Positions 15,128-60,965 are shown, counted from the first letter of the stretch. The stretch is 64,000 nucleotides of DNA from Escherichia phage vB_vPM_PD06 (NC_052653.1), one strand, 5' to 3'. Notes: generated by a model from the letters alone, not told the origin. Made by a program: numbers and translations.

Positions 15128-17107
15128 TTAACCACCAGTAGAAGATTGTCCACTGCTTAACTGAAGAGTTAAACCTTGTGAGAAGTTACTAAAACTGGTA
15201 TTCATTGTCGCATCTAGATAATTACTAAAACCATAGCCATCTGGAATAACATTAATCTGGAATGCGTTGTCTGGGATAACAACCGTATTCTCTACACTTA
15301 ATGGTACTGGAACACCTTGGCGTGGTGTTAGCATAGATGCTGTTAAATCAGGTCTATTGTAACCGATACTAGAAGCACTTGGGTTTAAGGCACTAGTTAA
15401 GAAACTACTATCAAAGTCACCTAAAGGTTGATTTTCAGGTTTATGTTGATCTCTTCCAATAGGCCAATAAGCCCAAGGATTACCACCAACCTGTGCATCG
15501 TACCCATACTGCGTACCATTATAATAATCTCTTACAGCTTCTTTAGAATTGTTTTTTGGCCCAACCTTATTTGAAAAATCAAGGAAATATTTCGCAATTT
15601 TTGCAAGGCTACTTACAATACTACCAGACATTTCACCAAGACCACGAGCAGCTTCTTGGAAAGTTTTCATATTCTCTGCAAAATCTGGTGCAGATTTTAA
15701 ACCATCCATGAATCCTATAAGTAAGTTATTGGTAAAACCTTCTCCTGCTGCACTAATTTGTGCTCTTAGCTTAACAAAATCTTGTGCTGCTTTGATGTTT
15801 TCATCGTTAAGAGTTGCTCCTGAATTTTTTAACATATCCAAGACTTTCATGTACTCTTTACCGTTATCCAAAAACATACGTTGGTAGTGCATTAAGTCAT
15901 CACCAAGGTTTTCCATCAAACGACCAATTTGCGCGGAGTTCATTCCTCTTTTTTGACCTTCATTAACAAGTGCTTGAACAAAGTCTAAAGGTCTGTTCTG
16001 GAATTTAGCAACGTCTTCTTTCGACCAACCAAATTGGTTCATGATTTCATTAATACCACTATCTCCACCTTTCCATTTACCTGATTTTTCATCAAATTCG
16101 GAGTGGAGTACAGTATTACCTAAACGTTCACGAACGTCTTTAATATTGTCAATGGCTTTAATAATGCTGGCAGAGTCTACACCGTTCATCTCACCCCAAG
16201 TACGCATTGTTAAAATTGCATTAGGGTTTACCTGTACGTTCTGACCACCTTTACTAACCATATTAATACGTTCTGCCGCAGTTGTGATACTTTCAGCTAT
16301 TTTGCTTATACCTTGATATAAACCAGCACCTAAAAGAGCAGCACCAAACATAGCAGGGTTAAGAGCAATAGCAGCATTACCTACACCAGATAGCTTACGT
16401 TGTCTGTCGCGTTGTCTTGCTTCTTTTTCTCTTCTTTGCTGACGTTCGAAATCCTTTCTTTCTCTTTCTCGGATACGCTGTCTTCTTTTATCTTCTGCTT
16501 CTTGCAGACGGGCAATTCTACGTCTAGCTCTCTCTTCATCAAGAAGTTGTGCATTCTTCTCTTTATGAGATCTGCGTAGTTCTTCTAACTGTCTAGCCAA
16601 AGTATTATTCATTTGTTGGCTAGTGATCACACCTTTACGATAAAGTTCAACAGTTTCTTCTACAATCTTTTTAGATTTTTCTAGAATTCTGCTGTCTGCT
16701 TTTGTAAAAGGCATAGCTTTAAAACTAAAATCGTCTTGCTTCATATTAGCAAGTGCTGCACGTTTAGCGGCGGCTTCTGCGGCTCTTTCTTCTGGTGTTT
16801 TACGTCCTCCAGAAGATCCAGAACCACCTCTACCACTTCCTCCTTTTCCACCACCACTTGAACCTCCGGTTGGTGGGATTGGTGGAGGATTACCGCCGCC
16901 AAGACCTGACATTTGCTGCCTTATTCTTTTAGCATACTCTTCCATACTTTTAAACTGACGACGCATTTTAGTCATATTTAAAGATGGTTCAATAGATTCT
17001 GTAAAAGTTTTAAGGTTTTTAATTGCGTCTTTAGTATTTTTTAAACTGTCTTTATCTACAGTAAACGTTACTGTATTCTTAATCTTGGAAGTGTTAATTT
17101 CTAACAA
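15128..17107 (-). CDS. tail tape measure protein
   Basis: 659 aa; Gly-rich low-complexity segment, Arg/Glu-rich coiled coil, hydrophobic segment; follows the frameshifted chaperone pair. Confidence 0.6.
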   Translation of the reverse strand: MLEINTSKIKNTVTFTVDKDSLKNTKDAIKNLKTFTESIEPSLNMTKMRRQFKSMEEYAKRIRQQMSGLGGGNPPPIPPTGGSSGGGKGGSGRGGSGSSGGRKTPEERAAEAAAKRAALANMKQDDFSFKAMPFTKADSRILEKSKKIVEETVELYRKGVITSQQMNNTLARQLEELRRSHKEKNAQLLDEERARRRIARLQEAEDKRRQRIRERERKDFERQQRREKEARQRDRQRKLSGVGNAAIALNPAMFGAALLGAGLYQGISKIAESITTAAERINMVSKGGQNVQVNPNAILTMRTWGEMNGVDSASIIKAIDNIKDVRERLGNTVLHSEFDEKSGKWKGGDSGINEIMNQFGWSKEDVAKFQNRPLDFVQALVNEGQKRGMNSAQIGRLMENLGDDLMHYQRMFLDNGKEYMKVLDMLKNSGATLNDENIKAAQDFVKLRAQISAAGEGFTNNLLIGFMDGLKSAPDFAENMKTFQEAARGLGEMSGSIVSSLAKIAKYFLDFSNKVGPKNNSKEAVRDYYNGTQYGYDAQVGGNPWAYWPIGRDQHKPENQPLGDFDSSFLTSALNPSASSIGYNRPDLTASMLTPRQGVPVPLSVENTVVIPDNAFQINVIPDGYGFSNYLDATMNTSFSNFSQGLTLQLSSGQSSTGG

Positions 17108-17126
17108 GGGTAATCCTCCGTATTAC

Positions 17127-17354
17127 TTATGAATCTGGAATTAATTTTTTCATAGCCGTATCCAGTTCTCTTATTGTTCTCTGTTGACCACGTTTAATAT
17201 CCGCATCTTTAACGTGAAGATCTTGTACATAGTCTTCAAATGTTAAATATTCATAAATTTTAAGTAGATAATCTACACCATAATTATCTAACGAGGACAA
17301 GGTTTCGGAGGTATTCTTAATTACCTTACAAAGAATTACTTCATACCATGTCAA
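17127..17354 (-). CDS. tail assembly chaperone frameshift extension (GT-type C-terminal part)
   Basis: -1 frame relative to upstream ORF stays open ~35 codons upstream of its first start codon, overlapping the 3' end of 17402-17884. Confidence 0.45.
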   Translation of the reverse strand: MTWYEVILCKVIKNTSETLSSLDNYGVDYLLKIYEYLTFEDYVQDLHVKDADIKRGQQRTIRELDTAMKKLIPDS

Positions 17355-17401
17355 GCTAAGGGTTTGTGAGGCAATTTCAATTGCTGATTTAATTGCCGGA
17401 C

Positions 17402-17884
17402 TTAACTCTTCGCTAGAGTCTCTATTCCTTGAAATTGGGTCAACAGTTTTCCGAAACCTCGTTTGAAAAAAGGGGCATAGTTCACCTCAAGAACTTTTGC
17501 AGCTAAGTCAACAACTAATTCTGGGTGAGCAAAAAACAATTCATCAAAATTATCGGAAACACTGTGTCCTGCTTCTGTGTAAACTTCATCTAAAATTTTA
17601 CGTAAGAATGCAGCTAAGTTTTTTTCTTCCAGACCACTGAATAATTGGATCAGTGCCATAGCAATACGAGCTTCTAGATCTTCGTCTGCTGACATAAGAG
17701 CAGTATTATACATTGTCATAGGAACAGCCAGTACACTACCTAGTTCTGGAATCCTTTCAAAAACTTTAGTCGGACTCCACTTGAGAACTCTAAATTTTAC
17801 ACTGCGTCCTTCATCCAGATCAATTTCAACCATTACTTCTGGACGAGCAAATTTTGCAATAGTATTATCTTTTTGTTGTTCCAT
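17402..17884 (-). CDS. tail assembly chaperone (G-type)
   Basis: 160 aa ORF between tail tube and tape measure genes with slippery heptamer near its 3' end. Confidence 0.5.
   Translation of the reverse strand: MEQQKDNTIAKFARPEVMVEIDLDEGRSVKFRVLKWSPTKVFERIPELGSVLAVPMTMYNTALMSADEDLEARIAMALIQLFSGLEEKNLAAFLRKILDEVYTEAGHSVSDNFDELFFAHPELVVDLAAKVLEVNYAPFFKRGFGKLLTQFQGIETLAKS
17465..17473 (-). promoter_or_regulatory. programmed -1 ribosomal frameshift slippery site (CCT TTT TTC; heptamer T_TTT_TTC)
   Basis: Zero-frame codons CCT-TTT-TTC of the chaperone ORF; the -1 frame is open from here through 17127. Confidence 0.45.
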
Positions 17885-17901
17885 TATTTCCTCTCTTTAA
17901 A

Positions 17902-17930
17902 AATAAAGGGCATTTCTGCCCTTTTTATTA
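17902..17930. terminator. hairpin with flanking A and T runs (bidirectional terminator-like)
   Basis: AAGGGCA-TTTC-TGCCCTT flanked by AAAAATAA and TTTTATT between tube and chaperone genes. Confidence 0.4.
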
Positions 17931-18407
17931 CTGAATAGTTAGAGCACTAATAGAGTTAAGTGCGTTAACACCAACACCTACAGTAGAACGAAGTAGGCTT
18001 GCATCTTTAAGACCAATTACCCATTGGTTTTCTTGAATAGTTTCACCAATAGTATCGTCCGGTTGGCTTTGAATCCAACCAATTGTGCTGATATAATATC
18101 CGCGAGGGTCTTCCAGATATACGCTAAATGCTACTTGACGAGTAGAATACATCGTTTGTGCATAAGCAGCAAGGACTTCGTTTGCTGGAGAAGTACGTTG
18201 CAGTGACATTGTTAGCGTACCTAAACGGTTACGACTAAGCGCCAGGGAAACGTCACCATCAGTACCTGAATATGGGTTGATGATATCGTTAGTTTTGTTA
18301 ATAACAATTTTGGTATCTGCGGCGAAACCCCAAGGTTCCCAACCACCCAAAGACAGGATTACTTGAGAAGGATCATAGGCCATTACGCCAGTAAGCATTT
18401 TATCCAA
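17928..18407 (-). CDS. tail tube protein
   Basis: 159 aa ORF directly downstream of the sheath gene and upstream of the chaperone pair (canonical contractile-tail gene order). Confidence 0.55.
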   Translation of the reverse strand: MDKMLTGVMAYDPSQVILSLGGWEPWGFAADTKIVINKTNDIINPYSGTDGDVSLALSRNRLGTLTMSLQRTSPANEVLAAYAQTMYSTRQVAFSVYLEDPRGYYISTIGWIQSQPDDTIGETIQENQWVIGLKDASLLRSTVGVGVNALNSISALTIQ

Positions 18408-18465: not shown

Positions 18466-19872
18466 TTATGAAGATACAGTAGAGCTATTGGAATTCTGGC
18501 TATTTGCAGTGCGGTTCGTCAGAACGTTTACCTGCACTTTAACATAGTGGAAGAATCCAGCATATACGTATTCAATAACCATACCATCAACCAAACGTGC
18601 ATTGATTTGAGCATCAGTCATATCTGCACGAGATGGGATATAGATAGTAGGTTTAAGGCTTACCAGAAGTCCTGTTTCCTCTGAAGTTACTACCTCATTG
18701 GCAATAGAACCATTGTTAATACCTACTTGGATTGGGTTTGCAGTAACAGCCTGACGAATCAAAGCAAGACCAGCAGAAGTTGCTCTAACACCACTACCAA
18801 GCATAGATTGCTGTTTAAATAGAGCGAACAGAGATTCTTCTACGCGAGCTTTGAACCACAGAGCGTGTACCACATAGTCAACATAGAAACCACTAACCAT
18901 GAAACCATCACGGTAGAACAGAACACCGTGTTCTTTACGGTAAATATTACCATTCTGTTGAACGATAAAGTTTTCTGCTGTCTGACCAAGTTTTTCAATC
19001 TCGATACCAACAAGGGTTTTACCATGCAGGGTAGTAGTACCTGGTGTTGCAGAGCAGATAGAACCAACTACAGCAGCTTCTGGGAACACTGTATCAGCGT
19101 TAGTCATCCACAATGCCATACAAGTGTTATTGTAGCCCATATCACCTAAGCGTTCTAGAATGTTATCTTCTTGTTTAGTTAGAACACCTGGTTGCGAGGT
19201 AGAGAAGAAATACACTTTATCGTGCTCTTCTACATAACCTGCTAGATCGATAATATCTTGTTCTGCGTGAGAATCAGATAGTAACCAGAACCAACTGTTT
19301 TCATAATCTGCAATTTTAGCAATATCTTCTAAGATATCATTTGCATATTCTACTTTAGTTGTGAATCCTGAACTATCCATAGTAGCGTATTTACCTGCAA
19401 CTGGGGTTACAGTGATAACACTACCATCGTTTGACACAGTGAAGAATTCTTTATACACCATGTCTGCGTTGATCATTTCTGTTAAACCAACAACAATCTC
19501 TTGAGCAGTTGCAGTATCATCGGCAACAAACTTGAAGTCCTTGCTTTTTGAATTTGCTTTAATAGTGATAACGTAAGTTGCACTATCTTCAACTACTGGA
19601 GTTAGAGTTGTTTTAGAAACATCACGCTTACCGACGATAACTTGTTCTGGTGCGAACAGACCGTCAAATAGTAGTTTTGCCATTTTATAAGCTGGATCGG
19701 CAGTGCCAAAACCTGCTTGCAGAAGTGCGTCTGAAGAAGTGAAATAATCTACAAGATTGCCAGTAACGTTATGCCCTGTAAGAATTAGAGGGATATCAAA
19801 CTGTGTTTCACTAATTGAAGTAGCACCGTAGGTAAGGGTTACGGAAACTACCTTATCACGAAAAGTTGCCAT
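18466..19872 (-). CDS. tail sheath protein
   Basis: 468 aa ORF preceding tube gene; size and position fit a contractile sheath. Confidence 0.6.
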   Translation of the reverse strand: MATFRDKVVSVTLTYGATSISETQFDIPLILTGHNVTGNLVDYFTSSDALLQAGFGTADPAYKMAKLLFDGLFAPEQVIVGKRDVSKTTLTPVVEDSATYVITIKANSKSKDFKFVADDTATAQEIVVGLTEMINADMVYKEFFTVSNDGSVITVTPVAGKYATMDSSGFTTKVEYANDILEDIAKIADYENSWFWLLSDSHAEQDIIDLAGYVEEHDKVYFFSTSQPGVLTKQEDNILERLGDMGYNNTCMALWMTNADTVFPEAAVVGSICSATPGTTTLHGKTLVGIEIEKLGQTAENFIVQQNGNIYRKEHGVLFYRDGFMVSGFYVDYVVHALWFKARVEESLFALFKQQSMLGSGVRATSAGLALIRQAVTANPIQVGINNGSIANEVVTSEETGLLVSLKPTIYIPSRADMTDAQINARLVDGMVIEYVYAGFFHYVKVQVNVLTNRTANSQNSNSSTVSS

Positions 19873-30882: not shown

Positions 30883-30958
30883 TGGTCGTGGTAAACGGAG
30901 TCGAACCGTTGTTTCTCGATTATCGGTCGAGTGTACTAACCATCTGTACGATACCACA
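30883..30958 (-). tRNA. tRNA-Ile (anticodon GAT)
   Basis: Hand fold: 7 bp acceptor (U1-G72), T arm AACGG/TTCGACT/CCGTT, anticodon stem CTCGA/TCGAG, loop CCGATAA (C at position 33 is unusual), CCA encoded. Confidence 0.55.
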
Positions 30959-30963
30959 ATAAT

Positions 30964-31060
30964 TGGCAGCAAGGTGAGGAATCGAACCCCTTGATCTATG
31001 GTTTGGAGCCATATTGAGTACCATACTCTTTTAAATCTACCCAGCTATGAGTTCCTTGAG
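30964..31060 (-). ncRNA. tRNA-like sequence with Trp-type (CCA) anticodon hairpin, non-canonical 5' half
   Basis: T arm AGGGG/TTCGATT/CCTCA, 3' acceptor CCTTGCT-G-CCA, perfect hairpin TATGG-CTCCAAA-CCATA and D-like GAGT...ACTC, but no matching 5' acceptor strand at canonical distance. Confidence 0.3.
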
Positions 31061-31104
31061 GTGTCAATGTAATTTAATCATTACACCAGAAGGGAGGTAT
31101 TTAG

Positions 31105-31183
31105 TGGAGGCGGGAATCGGATTTGAACCGATGATCTCCAGCATATGAAACTGGCGAGGACGACCAGACTCCTCTATCCCGCG
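31105..31183 (-). tRNA. tRNA with CAT anticodon (elongator Met or Ile2 type)
   Basis: T arm ATCGG/TTCAAAT/CCGAT, anticodon stem CCAGT/GCTGG, loop TTCATAT, 11-nt D loop; position 1-72 is an unpaired C-C. Confidence 0.5.
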
Positions 31184-31198
31184 CAATCTGTAATAATT

Positions 31199-31283
31199 TG
31201 GTAGCTAAGGTGAGACTCGAACTCACAATCCCTTGGGGCAATACGTTCTAAGCGTATCGTGTATACCATTCCACCACTTAGCC
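31199..31283 (-). tRNA. tRNA-Leu (anticodon TAG), type II
   Basis: 85 nt; acceptor GGCTAAG/CTTAGCT, anticodon stem ATACG/CGTAT, loop CTTAGAA, long variable arm, T arm GTGAG/TTCGAGT/CTCAC, CCA encoded. Confidence 0.6.
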
Positions 31284-31360
31284 ATAATAAGTACACCACT
31301 GTAAGAAGCCTCAATGTGCTATTGACAGTTAACCAAGTCTACTCCTTGGATGGTGTTATT

Positions 31361-31435
31361 TGGTGCAGAGAGATGGTAACGATCCATCCTTTCTACCTTT
31401 TCAGGGTAGCACTAATCCGTCTCAGCTATCTCTGC
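31361..31435 (-). tRNA. tRNA-Phe (anticodon GAA)
   Basis: Perfect acceptor GCAGAGA/TCTCTGC, anticodon stem CTACC/GGTAG, loop CTGAAAA; T loop ATCGTTA is atypical. Confidence 0.5.
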
Positions 31436-31440
31436 AAATT

Positions 31441-31516
31441 TGGTCAGTGCGGCAGGACTCGAACCTGCGACCTGAAGCGTCCAAGGCTCCCACGCTACCA
31501 ACTGCGCTACGCACTG
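31441..31516 (-). tRNA. tRNA-Pro (anticodon TGG)
   Basis: 76 nt; acceptor CAGTGCG/CGCACTG, D arm GCGC/AGTTGGTA/GCGT, anticodon loop CTTGGAC, T arm GCAGG/TTCGAGT/CCTGC, CCA encoded. Confidence 0.7.
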
Positions 31517-31523
31517 TAAATCT

Positions 31524-31598
31524 TGGCTGGAGATCTAGGAATCGAACCTAGTCATCACGACTTCAAAGGCCGTTGCCTTCCCACTAGGCTAATCTCCA
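31524..31598 (-). tRNA. tRNA-Gln (anticodon TTG)
   Basis: 75 nt; acceptor TGGAGAT/ATCTCCA, anticodon stem ACGGC/GTCGT, loop CTTTGAA, T arm CTAGG/TTCGATT/CCTAG, CCA encoded. Confidence 0.6.
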
Positions 31599-32029
31599 AT
31601 AAATTACTTCAGTGTTACCACAAAGTGACGAACTGCTTTTCGTGCAGCAGAAGCCAGAGGCTTAGCATACTTAAGTTCATCTTTTTCCATTATAAATTCT
31701 CTTTTAAATGAAAATGCAGGACTTATTGGCATTGCCTGCGCAAGCCCTCAAGGGGAACATAGGTTTTTGGATATTTAACGACCAGGATAACCATAAACCC
31801 GTCATCATTCACATTCAAGAGGTACACCATAAAACTGCCGGGGTCTTAAAACTATAATGATTCGCAAATCATTAATCAGACAGTTCGATGGCTCCTCGAT
31901 TTTAGCTCACACTAAGGCAGTGAATCTCCAATAAACTAAAAAATCACTTAAAAAGAACCGCTAGAGTTTGAAGGAGAAAACCATGAGCGAAAAGAGAAAT
32001 TTTCTCTAGCGATTCCATTTAAATAATCT

Positions 32030-32104
32030 TGGAGCGAGTAACAGGACTTGAACCTGCACCTGGAGGGTGGAAACCTCATATGCTACCATTAACACTATAC
32101 CCGC
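32030..32104 (-). tRNA. tRNA-Gly (anticodon TCC)
   Basis: 75 nt; acceptor GCGGGTA/TACTCGC, anticodon loop TTTCCAC closed by a 4 bp stem with one mismatch, T arm GCAGG/TTCAAGT/CCTGT, CCA encoded. Confidence 0.5.
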
Positions 32105-32159
32105 TTAACAATATTACTCTAACATACTATTAGCCCCTTTGTCAAGAGGCTTTTGATAC

Positions 32160-32489
32160 TTATTTTAAAATAGTAGATGCACCACGTCTGTTTAGATATG
32201 CAATAGTAAAGTCCAAATCACCTATTTCTTCAGGTTCCCACTGACCTTCTAAGCCATAACAAGAACAATGATATGCGTGTACTTCATAAAACAAAGATGT
32301 TTTCATATCATAAAAATAAACGTGAGATTCACCTTCATAATATGCACAATCATAAGTGGCAGAAAGAATTACAATGTTATCCTTATCTAACTCTACTTCA
32401 TAATATCTTTCAACATCTTCAATATCATCAAAACCATCGAAAACATTGATATTAAAATATTTCTCTAACTCTTTTTCTGTCACATACAC
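32160..32489 (-). CDS. hypothetical protein inside tRNA array
   Basis: 109 aa acidic, Tyr/Cys-rich ORF between tRNA-Gly and tRNA-Thr. Confidence 0.45.
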   Translation of the reverse strand: MYVTEKELEKYFNINVFDGFDDIEDVERYYEVELDKDNIVILSATYDCAYYEGESHVYFYDMKTSLFYEVHAYHCSCYGLEGQWEPEEIGDLDFTIAYLNRRGASTILK

Positions 32490-32506
32490 TCCTTTAGAGT
32501 TAAAAT

Positions 32507-32581
32507 TGGTGCTCCCACAAGGACTCGAACCCTGATAAGTTGCTTACAAGGCAACCGTAATAGCCGTTATACGATAGGAGC
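32507..32581 (-). tRNA. tRNA-Thr (anticodon TGT)
   Basis: 75 nt; acceptor GCTCCTA/TGGGAGC, anticodon stem GTTGC/GCAAC, loop CTTGTAA, T arm CAGGG/TTCGAGT/CCTTG, CCA encoded. Confidence 0.6.
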
Positions 32582-32587
32582 AATACT

Positions 32588-32664
32588 TGGACTCGGCAGG
32601 ATTCGATACCTGCAATTCCAGAAGCCTCTTGGCGACTGGGGGTTTACCTTAACTCTACAAGTCC
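32588..32664 (-). ncRNA. tRNA-like sequence, non-canonical interior
   Basis: 7 bp acceptor-like pairing GGACTTG/CGAGTCC and perfect T stem GCAGG/CCTGC around 8-nt loop TATCGAAT, but no canonical 5-7-5 anticodon arm. Confidence 0.25.
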
Positions 32665-32671
32665 ATAATTC

Positions 32672-32756
32672 TGGCGATGGATCAAGGATTTGAACCTTGC
32701 TAGAACTTTCGTTCACGGATTAACAGTCCGTCGCCCAACCACTAGGCCAATCCATC
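32672..32756 (-). tRNA. tRNA with Asn anticodon (GTT) and a long variable arm (type II-like)
   Basis: 85 nt; acceptor GATGGAT/ATCCATC, anticodon arm ACGGA-CTGTTAA-TCCGT, 15-nt variable region GAACGAAAGTTCTAG forming a GAAC/GTTC stem with GAAA loop, T arm CAAGG/TTCAAAT/CCTTG, CCA encoded. Confidence 0.5.
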
Positions 32757-32763
32757 TTTAATT

Positions 32764-32850
32764 TGGTGCAGGTAGTTGGACTCGAACCAACGAAGCCCCG
32801 AAGGGCAAGAGATTTACAGTCTCCAGCAATTGCCGCTATGCGATACCTAC
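32764..32850 (-). tRNA. tRNA-Tyr (anticodon GTA), type II
   Basis: 87 nt; acceptor GTAGGTA/TACCTGC, anticodon stem GGAGA/TCTCT, loop CTGTAAA, variable arm GCCC-TTCG-GGGC, T arm GTTGG/TTCGAGT/CCAAC, CCA encoded. Confidence 0.65.
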
Positions 32851-32855
32851 GTGTT

Positions 32856-32931
32856 TGGTACATCGTGAAGGATTCGAACCTTCGACCTTGGAGTTAAAAG
32901 CACCTTGCTCTACCAACTAAGCTAACGATGT
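32856..32931 (-). tRNA. tRNA-Lys (anticodon TTT) with weakly paired anticodon stem
   Basis: 76 nt; perfect acceptor ACATCGT/ACGATGT, D arm GCTT/AGTTGGTA/GAGC, T arm GAAGG/TTCGAAT/CCTTC; anticodon loop CTTTTAA flanked by AGGTG/CTCCA with two mismatches. Confidence 0.5.
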
Positions 32932-33065
32932 ATAAATTATCTTTAAAATAGCCAGTGTTTGCGGCACTTAGCTATGAAGTATTGGGGTATCGGTAAAGTG
33001 GTTACCGCCACTTGCCGAAAGTTTACTCTGCTAAAGTAAGATTACAAGCTACATTAAAGATAACT

Positions 33066-33151
33066 TGGCGGTAGATGTAGGACTTGAACCTACACGCCGT
33101 TTCCGACGACAGTTTAGCAAACTGTTGTGGCTACCATTTCACCAATCTACC
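33066..33151 (-). tRNA. tRNA-Ser (anticodon GCT), type II
   Basis: 86 nt; acceptor GGTAGAT/ATCTACC, anticodon stem ACAGT/ACTGT, loop TTGCTAA, variable arm CGTCG-GAAA-CGGCG, T arm GTAGG/TTCAAGT/CCTAC, CCA encoded. Confidence 0.65.
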
Positions 33152-33159
33152 GTTCTTAA

Positions 33160-33312
33160 TTATTCAAAACAACCGGAATCTTTTTGTTCTGCTTTTACCA
33201 TACGAATATTTTTACCATCTTCAGATTGTTGAAGATTAGAATACTCATAAACAACTTTATTATCTACAATCTTAACTCCGGTAACAACCTGTCCAATAGT
33301 TTTATAATTCAT
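33160..33312 (-). CDS. small hypothetical protein (50 aa)
   Basis: Six-frame ORF 33160-33360 overlaps tRNA-Ser at its 5' end; internal ATG at 33312 has AGGAG upstream. Confidence 0.3.
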   Translation of the reverse strand: MNYKTIGQVVTGVKIVDNKVVYEYSNLQQSEDGKNIRMVKAEQKDSGCFE

Positions 33313-33330
33313 AAAGCTCCTAGTTGAATT

Positions 33331-33420
33331 TGGAGGAAGATAATGGAGTCGAACCATCACCGTATCGCTACAATGGGCCAGGGTTCAAACCTGGTTGCGC
33401 ACCGCTGCGCCCTACCTTCC
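33331..33420 (-). tRNA. tRNA-Ser (anticodon TGA), type II
   Basis: 90 nt; acceptor GGAAGGT/ATCTTCC, anticodon stem CCAGG/CCTGG, loop TTTGAAC, ~19-nt variable arm, T arm GATGG/TTCGACT/CCATT, CCA encoded. Confidence 0.6.
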
Positions 33421-33435
33421 CGTTATCATACTTTA

Positions 33436-33465
33436 AATCTAACATAAAACTATCTTGCTTGTCAA
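33436..33465 (-). promoter_or_regulatory. candidate sigma70-like promoter inside tRNA array
   Basis: Minus strand TTGACA, 18-nt spacer, TAGATT; upstream of tRNA-Ser(TGA). Confidence 0.3.
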
Positions 33466-33483
33466 GTAGTTTTTAAAACTTTT

Positions 33484-33565
33484 TGGTCGGGGTGACAGGA
33501 TTCGAACCTGCATACTCCAATTACTCGGTTAACGCCTGATTAGAAGTCAGGTGAGATACACCCCG
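33484..33565 (-). ncRNA. tRNA-Arg(TCT)-like sequence lacking a canonical D arm
   Basis: 7 bp GC-rich acceptor CGGGGTG/CACCCCG, T arm GCAGG/TTCGAAT/CCTGT, perfect hairpin CCTGA-CTTCTAA-TCAGG, but only 7 nt between acceptor and that hairpin and a 23-nt insert before the T arm. Confidence 0.35.
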
Positions 33566-33637
33566 TTTTCACAGTAACTATAACAAAAAACTAAGTGAAT
33601 GTCAAGATATTTTTACTAAAATTATTATTTAAATTGA

Positions 33638-33743
33638 AGCCTAGTTATGGAATCGAACCATATTTCGTATTTAGTTAGACAAAGCGGTCTAACATATTTT
33701 TCAGGCTTTGATGGCCTCGGAATTACCAAATACCCTACTAGGC
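33638..33743 (-). ncRNA. 106-nt tRNA-like element
   Basis: T arm TATGG/TTCGATT/CCATA and exact 7 bp acceptor pairing GCCTAGT/ACTAGGC 106 nt apart; interior has hairpins AGGC-CATCAAA-GCCT and GTTAGAC-CGCTTT-GTCTAAC; no CCA encoded. Confidence 0.25.
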
Positions 33744-33745
33744 GT

Positions 33746-33831
33746 TGGTGCAAGTGGAGGGATTCGAACCCTCAATCATTTAAGCGTTGCGTTTTAAGCA
33801 CAATGTGTATCACCAATTCCACCACACTTGC
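33746..33831 (-). tRNA. tRNA-Leu (anticodon TAA), type II
   Basis: 86 nt; acceptor GCAAGTG/CACTTGC, anticodon stem TTGTG/CGCAA, loop CTTAAAA, T arm GAGGG/TTCGAAT/CCCTC, CCA encoded. Confidence 0.6.
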
Positions 33832-33862
33832 ATATAGGAGATGCATAGCATCTCCTTTTAAA

Positions 33863-33938
33863 TGGTGGTTCCCCAGGGTTACAATCCCTGCCCTCGACAC
33901 TTATGAGGTGTGCGCTCTCGTCAGTGAGCTATGGAACC
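33863..33938 (-). tRNA. tRNA with CAT anticodon (second copy; Met or Ile2 type)
   Basis: 76 nt; D arm GCTC/GAGC perfect, anticodon loop CTCATAA, T stem CAGGG/CCCTG with atypical loop ATTGTAA, acceptor has one mismatch at 7-66. Confidence 0.45.
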
Positions 33939-59875: not shown

Positions 59876-60702
59876 CAAAATTTTTAATCTTTGGTTCAAA
59901 AGGTCAATTAGGACAATCTTTGGCAAAAGTTGCACCAGAAGATGTTATTTTGATTGAAGCAAGTGATATAGACATTACCAACTTTAAAGATGTTATGAAT
60001 AGTCTTGTACAGCACGTGCCTGATGTTGTTGTGAATTGTGCGGCTTACACGGCAGTAGATAAAGCTGAAGAAGATGTTAACACCTGTATAAATGTTAATG
60101 CATACGGTGCAACAAACATTGCCAAAGCATGTAATGATTTACTGATACAGTTTGTACATATTTCAACAGACTATGTTTTTGATGGACATGTTGCTGGCAC
60201 AGAAGAGAGTAAAACAAACCCCTTGAACACCTACGGTTACAGTAAACAATTAGGTGAAACTTTAGTACAAGCAGTTTGTCCTACAGCACTTATTATCAGA
60301 ACAGCTTCTGTTTATAGTGAATTTGGACATAACTTTTTGAAAACTATGTTGGAACGCTACAACGGTGGTCAAAAAGAATTTAATGTAGTATGTGATCATT
60401 TATCATGTCCTACTTATGCACCTGATCTTGCAGAAACAATTTTTAAACTTGTAAAAGATGGTGTAAATAGTAAAATTGTACACTATGCAGGTGCAGATTA
60501 TATTTCTTGGTATGATTTTGCACGTAAGATATTTCTTGTTATAGATTTGTCTGTTACAGTTAATCCTGTATCTGCTTCAACCTATAATTCTAAAGCAGTC
60601 AGACCAGCAACATCTTATTTAAAAACAGATCCTACTTTAAATCCGCGAAGTGTTGATAGCGGTATTGTAAGAACTTTAACTATACTTTTAAACAAGGAGT
60701 GA
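59872..60702 (+). CDS. rmlD: dTDP-4-dehydrorhamnose reductase
   Basis: 276 aa; N-terminal FGSKGQLGQ Rossmann motif; overlaps rmlC stop. Confidence 0.65.
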   Translation: MTKFLIFGSKGQLGQSLAKVAPEDVILIEASDIDITNFKDVMNSLVQHVPDVVVNCAAYTAVDKAEEDVNTCINVNAYGATNIAKACNDLLIQFVHISTDYVFDGHVAGTEESKTNPLNTYGYSKQLGETLVQAVCPTALIIRTASVYSEFGHNFLKTMLERYNGGQKEFNVVCDHLSCPTYAPDLAETIFKLVKDGVNSKIVHYAGADYISWYDFARKIFLVIDLSVTVNPVSASTYNSKAVRPATSYLKTDPTLNPRSVDSGIVRTLTILLNKE

Positions 60703-60965
60703 AAATGAATTTTATTATCTACGGTAAACCAAATTGTCCTTTCTGCACTAACGCTAAGACTCTACTGGAACAGCGTGAACAGGATTTTAAATATCTTACC
60801 TTAGATGAAGACTATTCTTTAGATCAGATTCAGAATCTGGTTTTAGAGAAAACAGGTGTTCTGCCACGTACCTTTCCTCAAATTTTTGTGGAAGATGGTG
60901 AACATCTAACCCACGTAGGAGGTTTTTCTGAACTACGTGAATTCATGGCTCAGATTGCGGAGTAA
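60699..60965 (+). CDS. glutaredoxin (NrdH-like redoxin)
   Basis: 88 aa with CPFC active-site motif. Confidence 0.6.
   Translation: MKMNFIIYGKPNCPFCTNAKTLLEQREQDFKYLTLDEDYSLDQIQNLVLEKTGVLPRTFPQIFVEDGEHLTHVGGFSELREFMAQIAE

Follow-up and report, generated by a model that had tools for sequence, protein, structure and literature searches.

Our results suggest that the tail assembly chaperone gene of Escherichia phage vB_vPM_PD06 gives rise to two proteins, and that the longer of them, a functional product of 252 aa, would be made by a programmed -1 ribosomal frameshift of the lambda G/GT type. We place the probability of this reading at roughly 0.87, on the basis of comparisons between a 64,000-nucleotide stretch of the phage genome (NC_052653.1; referred to below as the window) and related loci. 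The sequence data show the anatomy of the locus, the identities of its genes and the conservation of the signal and of both frames, and from these, together with the lambda precedent, we infer the occurrence of slippage, its efficiency, its ribosomal nature and the partner of the C-terminal domain.

The chaperone pair lies on the minus strand between the genes for the tail tube and the tape measure protein, both of which have the same orientation. The tail sheath gene (18466-19872, minus strand, 468 aa) matches phrog_205 (E=3.8e-104) and DUF3383, the tail tube gene (17928-18407, minus strand, 159 aa) matches PF11681 KPP10_Orf10 and phrog_280, and the tape measure protein gene (15128-17107, minus strand, 659 aa) matches phrog_16051 with 1329 bits. 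These matches bear out the tube, sheath and tape measure assignments that the initial annotation had proposed alongside a frameshift. Genes for baseplate proteins, namely a Dit-like protein, a Pam3 gp18-like plug and the hub, were recognized farther downstream in profile searches. The chaperone ORF itself (TAC-N, gpG-like; 17402-17884, minus strand) encodes 160 aa from an ATG at 17884 to a TAA at 17404-17402, and matches Pfam PF21822 Phage_TAC_15 (E=6.7e-22, 78.8 bits, cut-off 22) as well as phrog_3840 (E=1.2e-49), phrog_1613 and phrog_1688. It is followed by an ORF of 75 aa, usually annotated from a TTG start (17127-17354, minus strand) and assigned to phrog_16039, a family of unknown function; the tape measure gene, with a GGAGG Shine-Dalgarno sequence and a TTG start of its own, begins right after the stop of this ORF. 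In phage phi92 the counterparts of the 160-aa ORF, the 75-aa ORF and the tape measure gene are gp132 ("tail assembly chaperone"), gp133 and gp134. The 1-kb region around the slip site is 99-100% identical to that of many Escherichia phages of the genus Justusliebigvirus (e.g. phage cardinal, PQ567651), a group of phi92-like myoviruses in the subfamily Stephanstirmvirinae.

An intrinsic terminator, consisting of a hairpin and a T-run (17905-17924, minus strand), separates the tube gene from the chaperone gene, and a terminator is annotated at the same position in the records of PATM and phAPEC8. Its location fits, and the terminator probably brings about, a weaker expression of the chaperone and tape measure genes than of the tube and sheath genes.

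The initial annotation had placed a slippery heptamer, T_TTT_TTC, about 22 codons before the stop of the 160-aa ORF. We located it at 17471-17465 (minus strand), where the zero frame reads GTG AAC TAT GCC CCT TTT TTC AAA CGA GGT TTC GGA. The heptamer is made up of the last base of CCT (codon 138) and the codons for Phe139 and Phe140, TTT and TTC, and is thus in the X_XXY_YYZ phase of the zero frame, whose stop follows 21 codons past TTC. Since the preceding codon is CCT in this subfamily, a second in-phase heptamer, C_CCT_TTT (17474-17468), overlaps the first. Slippage on either would yield an identical protein, and the combined slip sequence of the phi92-like subfamily, C_CCT_TTT_TTC, spans 17474-17465. 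In measurements made in E. coli, the H_HH.U_UU.Y class, of which both U_UU.U_UU.C and C_CC.U_UU.U are members, ranks among the most efficient heptamers, and U_UU.U_UU.C is used by some IS elements too (PMC4066793).

The -1 frame also proved to be open from the heptamer through the 75-codon ORF, as had been claimed from the sequence at the outset. Upstream of the slip site this frame contains 17 stops in 133 codons, a stop density of ∼12.8%, whereas from 17486 onwards 119 codons are free of stops, until a TAA at 17129-17127, shortly ahead of the Shine-Dalgarno sequence of the tape measure gene. Counted from the heptamer the open run is ∼114 codons, and by our own arithmetic the chance of such a run at the upstream stop density is roughly 1e-7. 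The extension after the slip (17127-17465, minus strand) comprises 112 aa (QTRFRK...LIPDS) and a stop, and its C-terminal part matches phrog_16039 (E=1.8e-44). In the predicted fusion of 252 aa (TAC-NC, gpGT-like) residues 1-140 would be followed by these 112 new residues, which replace a tail of 20 residues; the corresponding coding sequence is join(17884..17465, 17465..17127) on the minus strand.

The heptamer by itself is weak evidence for frameshifting, because in-phase motifs of the X_XXY_YYZ type are common in the window (108 motifs, or 5.6 per 1000 codons, at 37.5% GC). At only two of the 108 does the -1 frame extend at least 30 codons beyond the zero-frame stop, one being the chaperone site. 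The other, T_TTA_AAC at 60687 on the plus strand, has an 88-codon extension in the -1 frame and was rejected as an ordinary gene junction, with an AAGGAG Shine-Dalgarno sequence and an ATG of its own.

Stronger evidence comes from relatives. Our sample comprised 51 related loci with 43 distinct genes, among which identity in the chaperone falls to about 25% (23-31%). It included annotated phages of decreasing similarity (phi92, Klebsiella phi1_175008, Citrobacter Tr1, phAPEC8, Klebsiella 05F01 and KP13-16), the Vequintavirinae Hena1, FV3, phiTE, KB57, GAP31, SSBI34, ABPH49 and KE23, and 36 contigs from IMG/VR. T_TTT_TTC was present in phase in all 51 loci, from Stephanstirmvirinae, Vequintavirinae and IMG/VR contigs alike, although such counts should not be taken as formal probabilities, since the loci share ancestry and are not phylogenetically independent. 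The -1 frame was likewise open in 51/51, for 103-129 codons downstream of the heptamer and for only 3-23 codons upstream of it. With the fused protein as a tblastn query we obtained matches in 368 phage records, in 288 of which pieces in the two frames cover at least 80% of the fusion.

In the encoded proteins, the Phe-Phe dipeptide of the slip site does not vary. The three synonymous positions of the heptamer each carry 2.0 bits and do not vary among 36 distinct sequence contexts, whereas most third codon positions in the flanking and upstream sequence are near saturation (0.06-0.9 bits). The amino acid before Phe-Phe does vary, being Pro (CCT), Cys (TGT) or Ser (AGT), yet its third base is T every time. 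The dipeptide itself is encoded by TTT-TTC in 44/44 genes, against a ratio of 164 TTT to 179 TTC for the other Phe codons of those genes. Invariance at the synonymous positions of CCT/TGT/AGT-TTT-TTC indicates that selection is acting on the nucleotides of the slip site themselves, as protein constraint alone cannot explain it. One of the two peptide patterns with which the IMG/VR loci were collected contained FF, and the sample is consequently biased towards these amino acids, but not towards a choice of codons.

The sequences that flank the slip site are less uniform. Shine-Dalgarno-like elements at a spacing of 10-14 nt stimulate -1 frameshifts, and E. coli dnaX combines such an upstream stimulator with the heptamer A_AAA_AAG and a downstream hairpin. 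In the window a Shine-Dalgarno-like GAGGTG (17483-17488, minus strand) is situated 11 nt upstream of the heptamer, inside this spacing, a point of resemblance to dnaX. Of 44 distinct genes, 35 have a GGAG, GAGG or GGAGG core 7-22 nt ahead of the heptamer and nine lack it, and the Glu codon at the element is GAG in 34 of 39 cases as compared with 29% GAG elsewhere in the same genes. The element is also constrained by coding. It is therefore plausible, judging from its position and codon usage, that GAGGTG acts as a dnaX-type stimulator through anti-Shine-Dalgarno pairing, albeit one that is not universal among homologues. Downstream, a conserved GGTTTCGG (17451-17458, minus strand) lies 6 nt from the heptamer here and 9 nt from it in the rV5-like phages. 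Translated in the zero frame it gives GFG, and in the -1 frame RFR; this dual coding may fully explain its conservation.

The initial annotation had further suggested a search for a stimulatory structure downstream of the heptamer, and none was detectable by folding or by RNAalifold. For segments of 85 nt and 171 nt, the predicted folds were no better than shuffled controls (z = -0.74 and +0.91, respectively), and RNAalifold returned no conserved base pairs, either for 13 diverse sequences jointly or for each subfamily separately. A scan of 17000-18000 against Rfam revealed no frameshift element. Two sub-threshold matches on the opposite strand were judged to be due to chance: an SraG-like match (36 bits, gathering score 50), which was driven by the terminator hairpin, and a CRISPR-DR35 match (25 bits, below its gathering threshold). 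The site differs from dnaX in that a downstream hairpin is absent and the Shine-Dalgarno-like element is not universal (35 of 44 genes). Nor is the stable hairpin or pseudoknot found, conserved at 5-9 nt past the heptamer, that marks sites of the IS3, coronavirus and dnaX type. Without conserved downstream structure the efficiency of frameshifting may be low. However, the lambda G/GT frameshift is independent of downstream RNA structure, and its absence here is consequently no argument against a frameshift.

It could be hypothesized that the flanking elements and the slip site form one structure-independent cassette (GAGG-like sequence, AAC-UAY-xxU-UUU-UUC and downstream GGUUUCG), the nucleotides of which would have been frozen since the last ancestor shared by six or more lineages of myoviruses (Stephanstirmvirinae, Vequintavirinae, FelixO1-like Ounavirinae, Plateaulakevirus, Chaseviridae and ICP1-like phages). 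The phage's own tRNA-Phe(GAA) and tRNA-Pro(UGG), encoded by adjacent genes at 31361-31516, might help to set the efficiency of such a cassette. We consider this extended hypothesis unlikely.

More distant homologues of the chaperone bear on the nature of the slippage. They were located by walking out from the sheath gene and recognized by a ...N-[YF]-G-x-F-F region. T_TTT_TTC is retained in Chaseviridae VPs20, Aeromonas 4L372D and the FelixO1-like Moogle. At the homologous place, the chaperone of Rheinheimera Barbavirus has an in-phase G_GGA_AAG, which is the lambda motif, and that of Vibrio VnaP an in-phase A_AAT_TTT; ICP1 has T_TTT_TTT, a T7 run, and in Pakpunavirus PaP1 a T6 run is shifted by one phase relative to the upstream frame (G_GTT_TTT_T). 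Taken together with the invariant slip site and the open -1 frame of the 51 loci, these alternative heptamers farther out argue in favor of the match to the conserved G/GT chaperone frameshift that had been proposed initially.

The same fusion of 252 aa could in principle be produced by transcriptional slippage, with an RNA polymerase that stutters on T6 and adds one U to some of the mRNAs. Insertion of a U (CCU UUU UUU CAA) would give a product identical to that of the frameshift, the deeply conserved feature is a T-run, and both the PaP1 run outside the usual phase and the T7 of ICP1 could suggest a mechanism that is independent of phase. Slippage by bacterial RNA polymerase, however, generally requires a homopolymer of about 7-9 bases or longer. 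In the 51 close and mid-distance loci the run is exactly T6 and never longer, and its phase is the canonical X_XXY_YYZ throughout the phi92 and rV5 clades. In Barbavirus and VnaP there is no long homopolymer, yet G_GGA_AAG and A_AAT_TTT are classic ribosomal slip sites. Hence the long homopolymer expected for programmed transcriptional slippage is not what we find, given a run of T6 only, in canonical phase, and heteropolymeric heptamers in some homologues. Even the G_GUU_UUU of PaP1 resembles the ribosomal slip site of T7 gene 10 (cited in PMC12846349), and a survey of heptamers discusses slippage for U7 and A7 runs only (PMC4066793). Lineages that have exchanged one canonical heptamer for another, without a long homopolymer, amount to a natural experiment that supports ribosomal slippage, and we regard transcriptional slippage as improbable, the shifted run of PaP1 being the one observation that leaves it some probability.

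Ribosomal frameshifting would also account for the region between the slip site and the annotated start of the 75-aa ORF. From the opening of the -1 frame at 17486 to the TTG at 17354 the window contains no ATG, GTG or TTG in this frame, and no Shine-Dalgarno sequence was found before that TTG. Among relatives the first start codon of the -1 frame occurs 30 to 85 codons past the slip, at a position that is not conserved, and a few relatives have a chance ATG or TTG right before the heptamer. Because the first start varies, ORF calls differ in length or are absent altogether; the small ORF is omitted from the annotations of Hena1, SSBI34, VB-EcoM-WM, EF1-1 and SKA64, which leaves a gap of ∼300 nt. 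In public records the stretch 17355-17401 (minus strand) is annotated as intergenic, and it codes for LSPAIKSAIEIASQTLS in the -1 frame. Among 13 distinct Stephanstirmvirinae-like sequences, the mean pairwise difference in this stretch at -1-frame codon positions 1, 2 and 3 was 0.34, 0.22 and 0.63, respectively, a signature that matches that of the coding part after the TTG (0.22, 0.17 and 0.57; 13 sequences). An alignment of the conceptual fusions from 43 genes displays conservation through the junction, with FF-x-x-RFR, a variable linker and a conserved domain of ∼75 aa that begins PAIKSAIEIA..., upstream of the annotated TTG.

In the 20 codons where the two frames overlap, the most variable position is the third position of the zero frame. 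Dominance of the zero-frame pattern in the overlap suggests that the tail of the short form is under selection as well, and both chaperone products appear, from these substitution patterns, to matter.

These observations weigh on the layout found in nearly all public records, in which the pair would be two genes, the 75-aa ORF being translated from the TTG at 17354 or by re-initiation past the chaperone stop, and the heptamer a by-product of the conserved Phe-Phe. That dipeptide is indeed invariant in the protein, and in an AT-rich genome about 0.16 heptamers are expected by chance in a stretch of 28 codons. Yet the TTG lacks a Shine-Dalgarno sequence and no position of a start codon is conserved among relatives, conserved residues and -1-frame periodicity reach upstream of the TTG and back to the slip site, with the RFR motif included, and the synonymous positions of the slip site are invariant beyond what the protein would demand. 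Gene callers choose variable starts and so yield ragged products of 64-84 aa. A search of 5.8 billion proteins with the C-terminal part as query gave only such fragments, and neither a fused protein nor a natural in-frame fusion. We find the two-gene layout highly improbable and interpret the 75-aa ORF, from its reading frame and conservation, as the 3' portion of the frameshifted coding sequence rather than a gene in its own right.

Barely credible is a third explanation, in which the downstream ORF would be a relic without function and assembly would not depend on any second product; the C-terminal part does match only PHROGs of unknown function, but its domain is conserved across the subfamilies and beyond with a pattern of purifying selection, and the -1 frame is open in 51/51 loci despite saturated synonymous divergence. 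No meaningful relatives of the fused protein were found in NCBIfam or, by sequence, among the solved structures of the PDB.

According to the frameshift model, most ribosomes would read the chaperone gene from 17884 to its stop at 17402 and produce the short form of 160 aa. A minority would slip with tRNA-Phe on UUU in the P site and on UUC in the A site of C_CCU_UUU_UUC, move back by one base, re-pair with UUU UUU and read 112 further codons in the -1 frame to 17127. The resulting long form would have 252 aa, with residues 1-140 common to both. In lambda, an abundant short form and a rare long form bind the tape measure protein via the domain that they share, the domain encoded in the -1 frame attaches to the tube subunit and nucleates its polymerization, and both forms then leave (PMC5009743). 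By analogy, the short and long forms of the present phage would coat the tape measure protein through their shared N-domain, as gpG and gpGT do, and the rare C-terminal domain would recruit the tube protein, whereupon tube and sheath could polymerize to the right length. The sheath would then be templated by the tube, and neither form of the chaperone would stay in the virion, although both would be needed to assemble the tail.

The G/GT frameshift was described as early as 1993 (Levin) and generalized in 2004 (Xu, Hendrix and Duda), with further work in 2013 and 2014 (reviewed in PMC5009743). The arrangement described here resembles lambda gpG/gpGT in that the chaperone lies between the genes for the tube (the major tail protein) and the tape measure protein, with a canonical heptamer near the 3' end, a downstream ORF that lacks a start of its own, products of comparable size (here 160 and 252 aa) and no obligatory downstream structure. 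It differs in the heptamer, which is U_UUU_UUC (tRNA-Phe) and not G_GGA_AAG (tRNA-Gly, tRNA-Lys). Unlike lambda, moreover, the phage is a contractile-tailed myovirus, and its chaperone belongs to Pfam Phage_TAC_15. Among myoviruses, the tail chaperone of P2 (gpE/gpE+E') is subject to a -1 frameshift on T_TTT_TTG. P2 shares with the present phage a contractile tail, a chaperone pair flanked by the genes for tube and tape measure, and a run of the U6 type, whereas its proteins are much smaller and of another sequence family, and the Z base of its heptamer is G rather than C. P2 is also mentioned in PMC5009743.

Another parallel is Citrobacter phage Moogle, which has a homologous chaperone with an ...L-E-x-N-[YF]-G-x-F-F motif and an identical in-phase T_TTT_TTC, preceded in its case by GGAGG. 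The record of this FelixO1-like phage already annotates a joined coding sequence, named "tape measure chaperone". In December 2025 a paper made the case that the sister clades Vandenendeviridae and Andersonviridae have a conserved GTTTTT frameshift, with arguments of the same kind as ours, i.e. a -1 frame that is always open and a "hypothetical protein" that represents the C-terminal domain (PMC12846349). Stephanstirmvirinae and Vequintavirinae are outside the coverage of that study, and the Pakpunaviruses use the shifted G_GTT_TTT.

In the phi92-like phages the proposed frameshift is ordinary and to be expected of tail chaperones, and it has been missed by the public annotations of the group. 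A joined coding sequence was present in none of 13 annotated phi92-like, phAPEC8-like and rV5-like records whose feature tables we inspected, and we found no statement of a frameshift in phi92, phAPEC8, rV5 or PVP-SE1 in the searchable papers. A correction is warranted in which gp133, or the "hypothetical protein", and the adjacent gap become the C-terminal domain of a frameshifted chaperone with a joined coding sequence. The phi92-like, phAPEC8-like and rV5-like phages affected include many candidates for phage therapy.

In conclusion, the presented data leave the general understanding of the frameshift process unchanged. They extend the G/GT paradigm to two more subfamilies, both large, of phages with contractile tails, with a U6C slip site that is common also to FelixO1-like, Chaseviridae and Plateaulakevirus phages.

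The architecture of the predicted -1 frameshift, which would join the tail assembly chaperone to the overlapping reading frame as a fusion of 252 aa, is kept in homologous chaperone genes of distant myoviruses, namely Rheinheimera Barbavirus (L060), Vibrio phage VnaP (L058), ICP1 (L057), PaP1 (L056), the Chaseviridae member VPs20 (L062) and Aeromonas phage 4L372D (L059). What sometimes changes in these lineages is the slippery heptamer itself, which is swapped for G_GGA_AAG in Barbavirus, A_AAT_TTT in VnaP, T_TTT_TTT in ICP1 and a phase-shifted G_GTT_TTT in PaP1. A joined chaperone coding sequence was annotated in none of these six records. The GC-rich chaperone homologue of Burkholderia phage vB_PL1 (L061, 5390-6138) is an open reading frame without a canonical heptamer; both of its alternative frames are open, for 155 and 115 codons.

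We considered a second heptamer, T_TTA_AAC (60687-60710, plus strand), which lies four codons upstream of the stop of a 276-aa ORF, at a place where the -1 frame holds an ORF of 88 codons. A frameshift was rejected here, the site being an ordinary gene junction (AAGGAG TGA AA ATG). The protein downstream of it begins MNFIIYGKPNCPFC and looks like a glutaredoxin or an NrdH-like protein.

Between the tube stop and the Shine-Dalgarno sequence of the chaperone gene, the hairpin AAAGGGCAgaaaTGCCCTTT and the T-run behind it (17905-17924, seen on both strands) form an intrinsic terminator or attenuator, and a terminator is annotated at this position in the PATM and phAPEC8 records. Two Rfam matches at the locus fell below threshold. 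The first, to SraG (17802-17927, on the plus strand and so antisense to the chaperone gene, at its 5' end), reached 36.3 bits (E ~1e-4) against a gathering score of 50, and is probably due to chance since its alignment is carried mainly by the terminator hairpin and AU-rich sequence. The second, to CRISPR-DR35 (17418-17452, plus strand, 25 bits), likewise seems to be a chance match. In the upstream sheath gene, the RefSeq record of phi92 (NC_023693; L002, 480-572) carries a "Hypothetical tRNA" within the coding sequence. This is probably an annotation artefact, because an ARAGORN scan of the equivalent sheath region in the window (18466-19872) returned no tRNA.

Seven public records bear host names other than Escherichia: four are labelled "Campylobacter phage" (MG065639, MG065645, MG065656, MG065689), and the others "Serratia phage KKP_3264" (OK210077), "Acinetobacter phage ABPW7" (OP562383) and "Pseudomonas phage PsgM04F" (OR584014). 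At the chaperone locus they are either 99-100% identical to phi92-like coliphages, or ~70% identical and phAPEC8-like. Contamination may lie behind these host names, or else very broad claims of host range.

The slip-site codons CCU UUU UUC are decoded by the phage's own tRNA-Pro(UGG) and tRNA-Phe(GAA), whose genes (31441-31516 and 31361-31435, both minus strand) adjoin each other within a minus-strand cluster at 30883-33938. As this cluster holds 15 tRNA genes, the match is probably a coincidence; the phage tRNA-Phe could nevertheless participate in slippage at the chaperone heptamer.

Finally, in several relatives the -1 ORF of the chaperone is separated from the tape measure gene by additional genes: VnaP has a putative homing endonuclease there (L058, 5849-7093), phiTE two ORFs (L010, 1970-3070) and Barbavirus a reverse-strand gene for a DNA-binding protein (L060, 5067-5744). 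The chaperone and tape measure genes are therefore not always neighbours.
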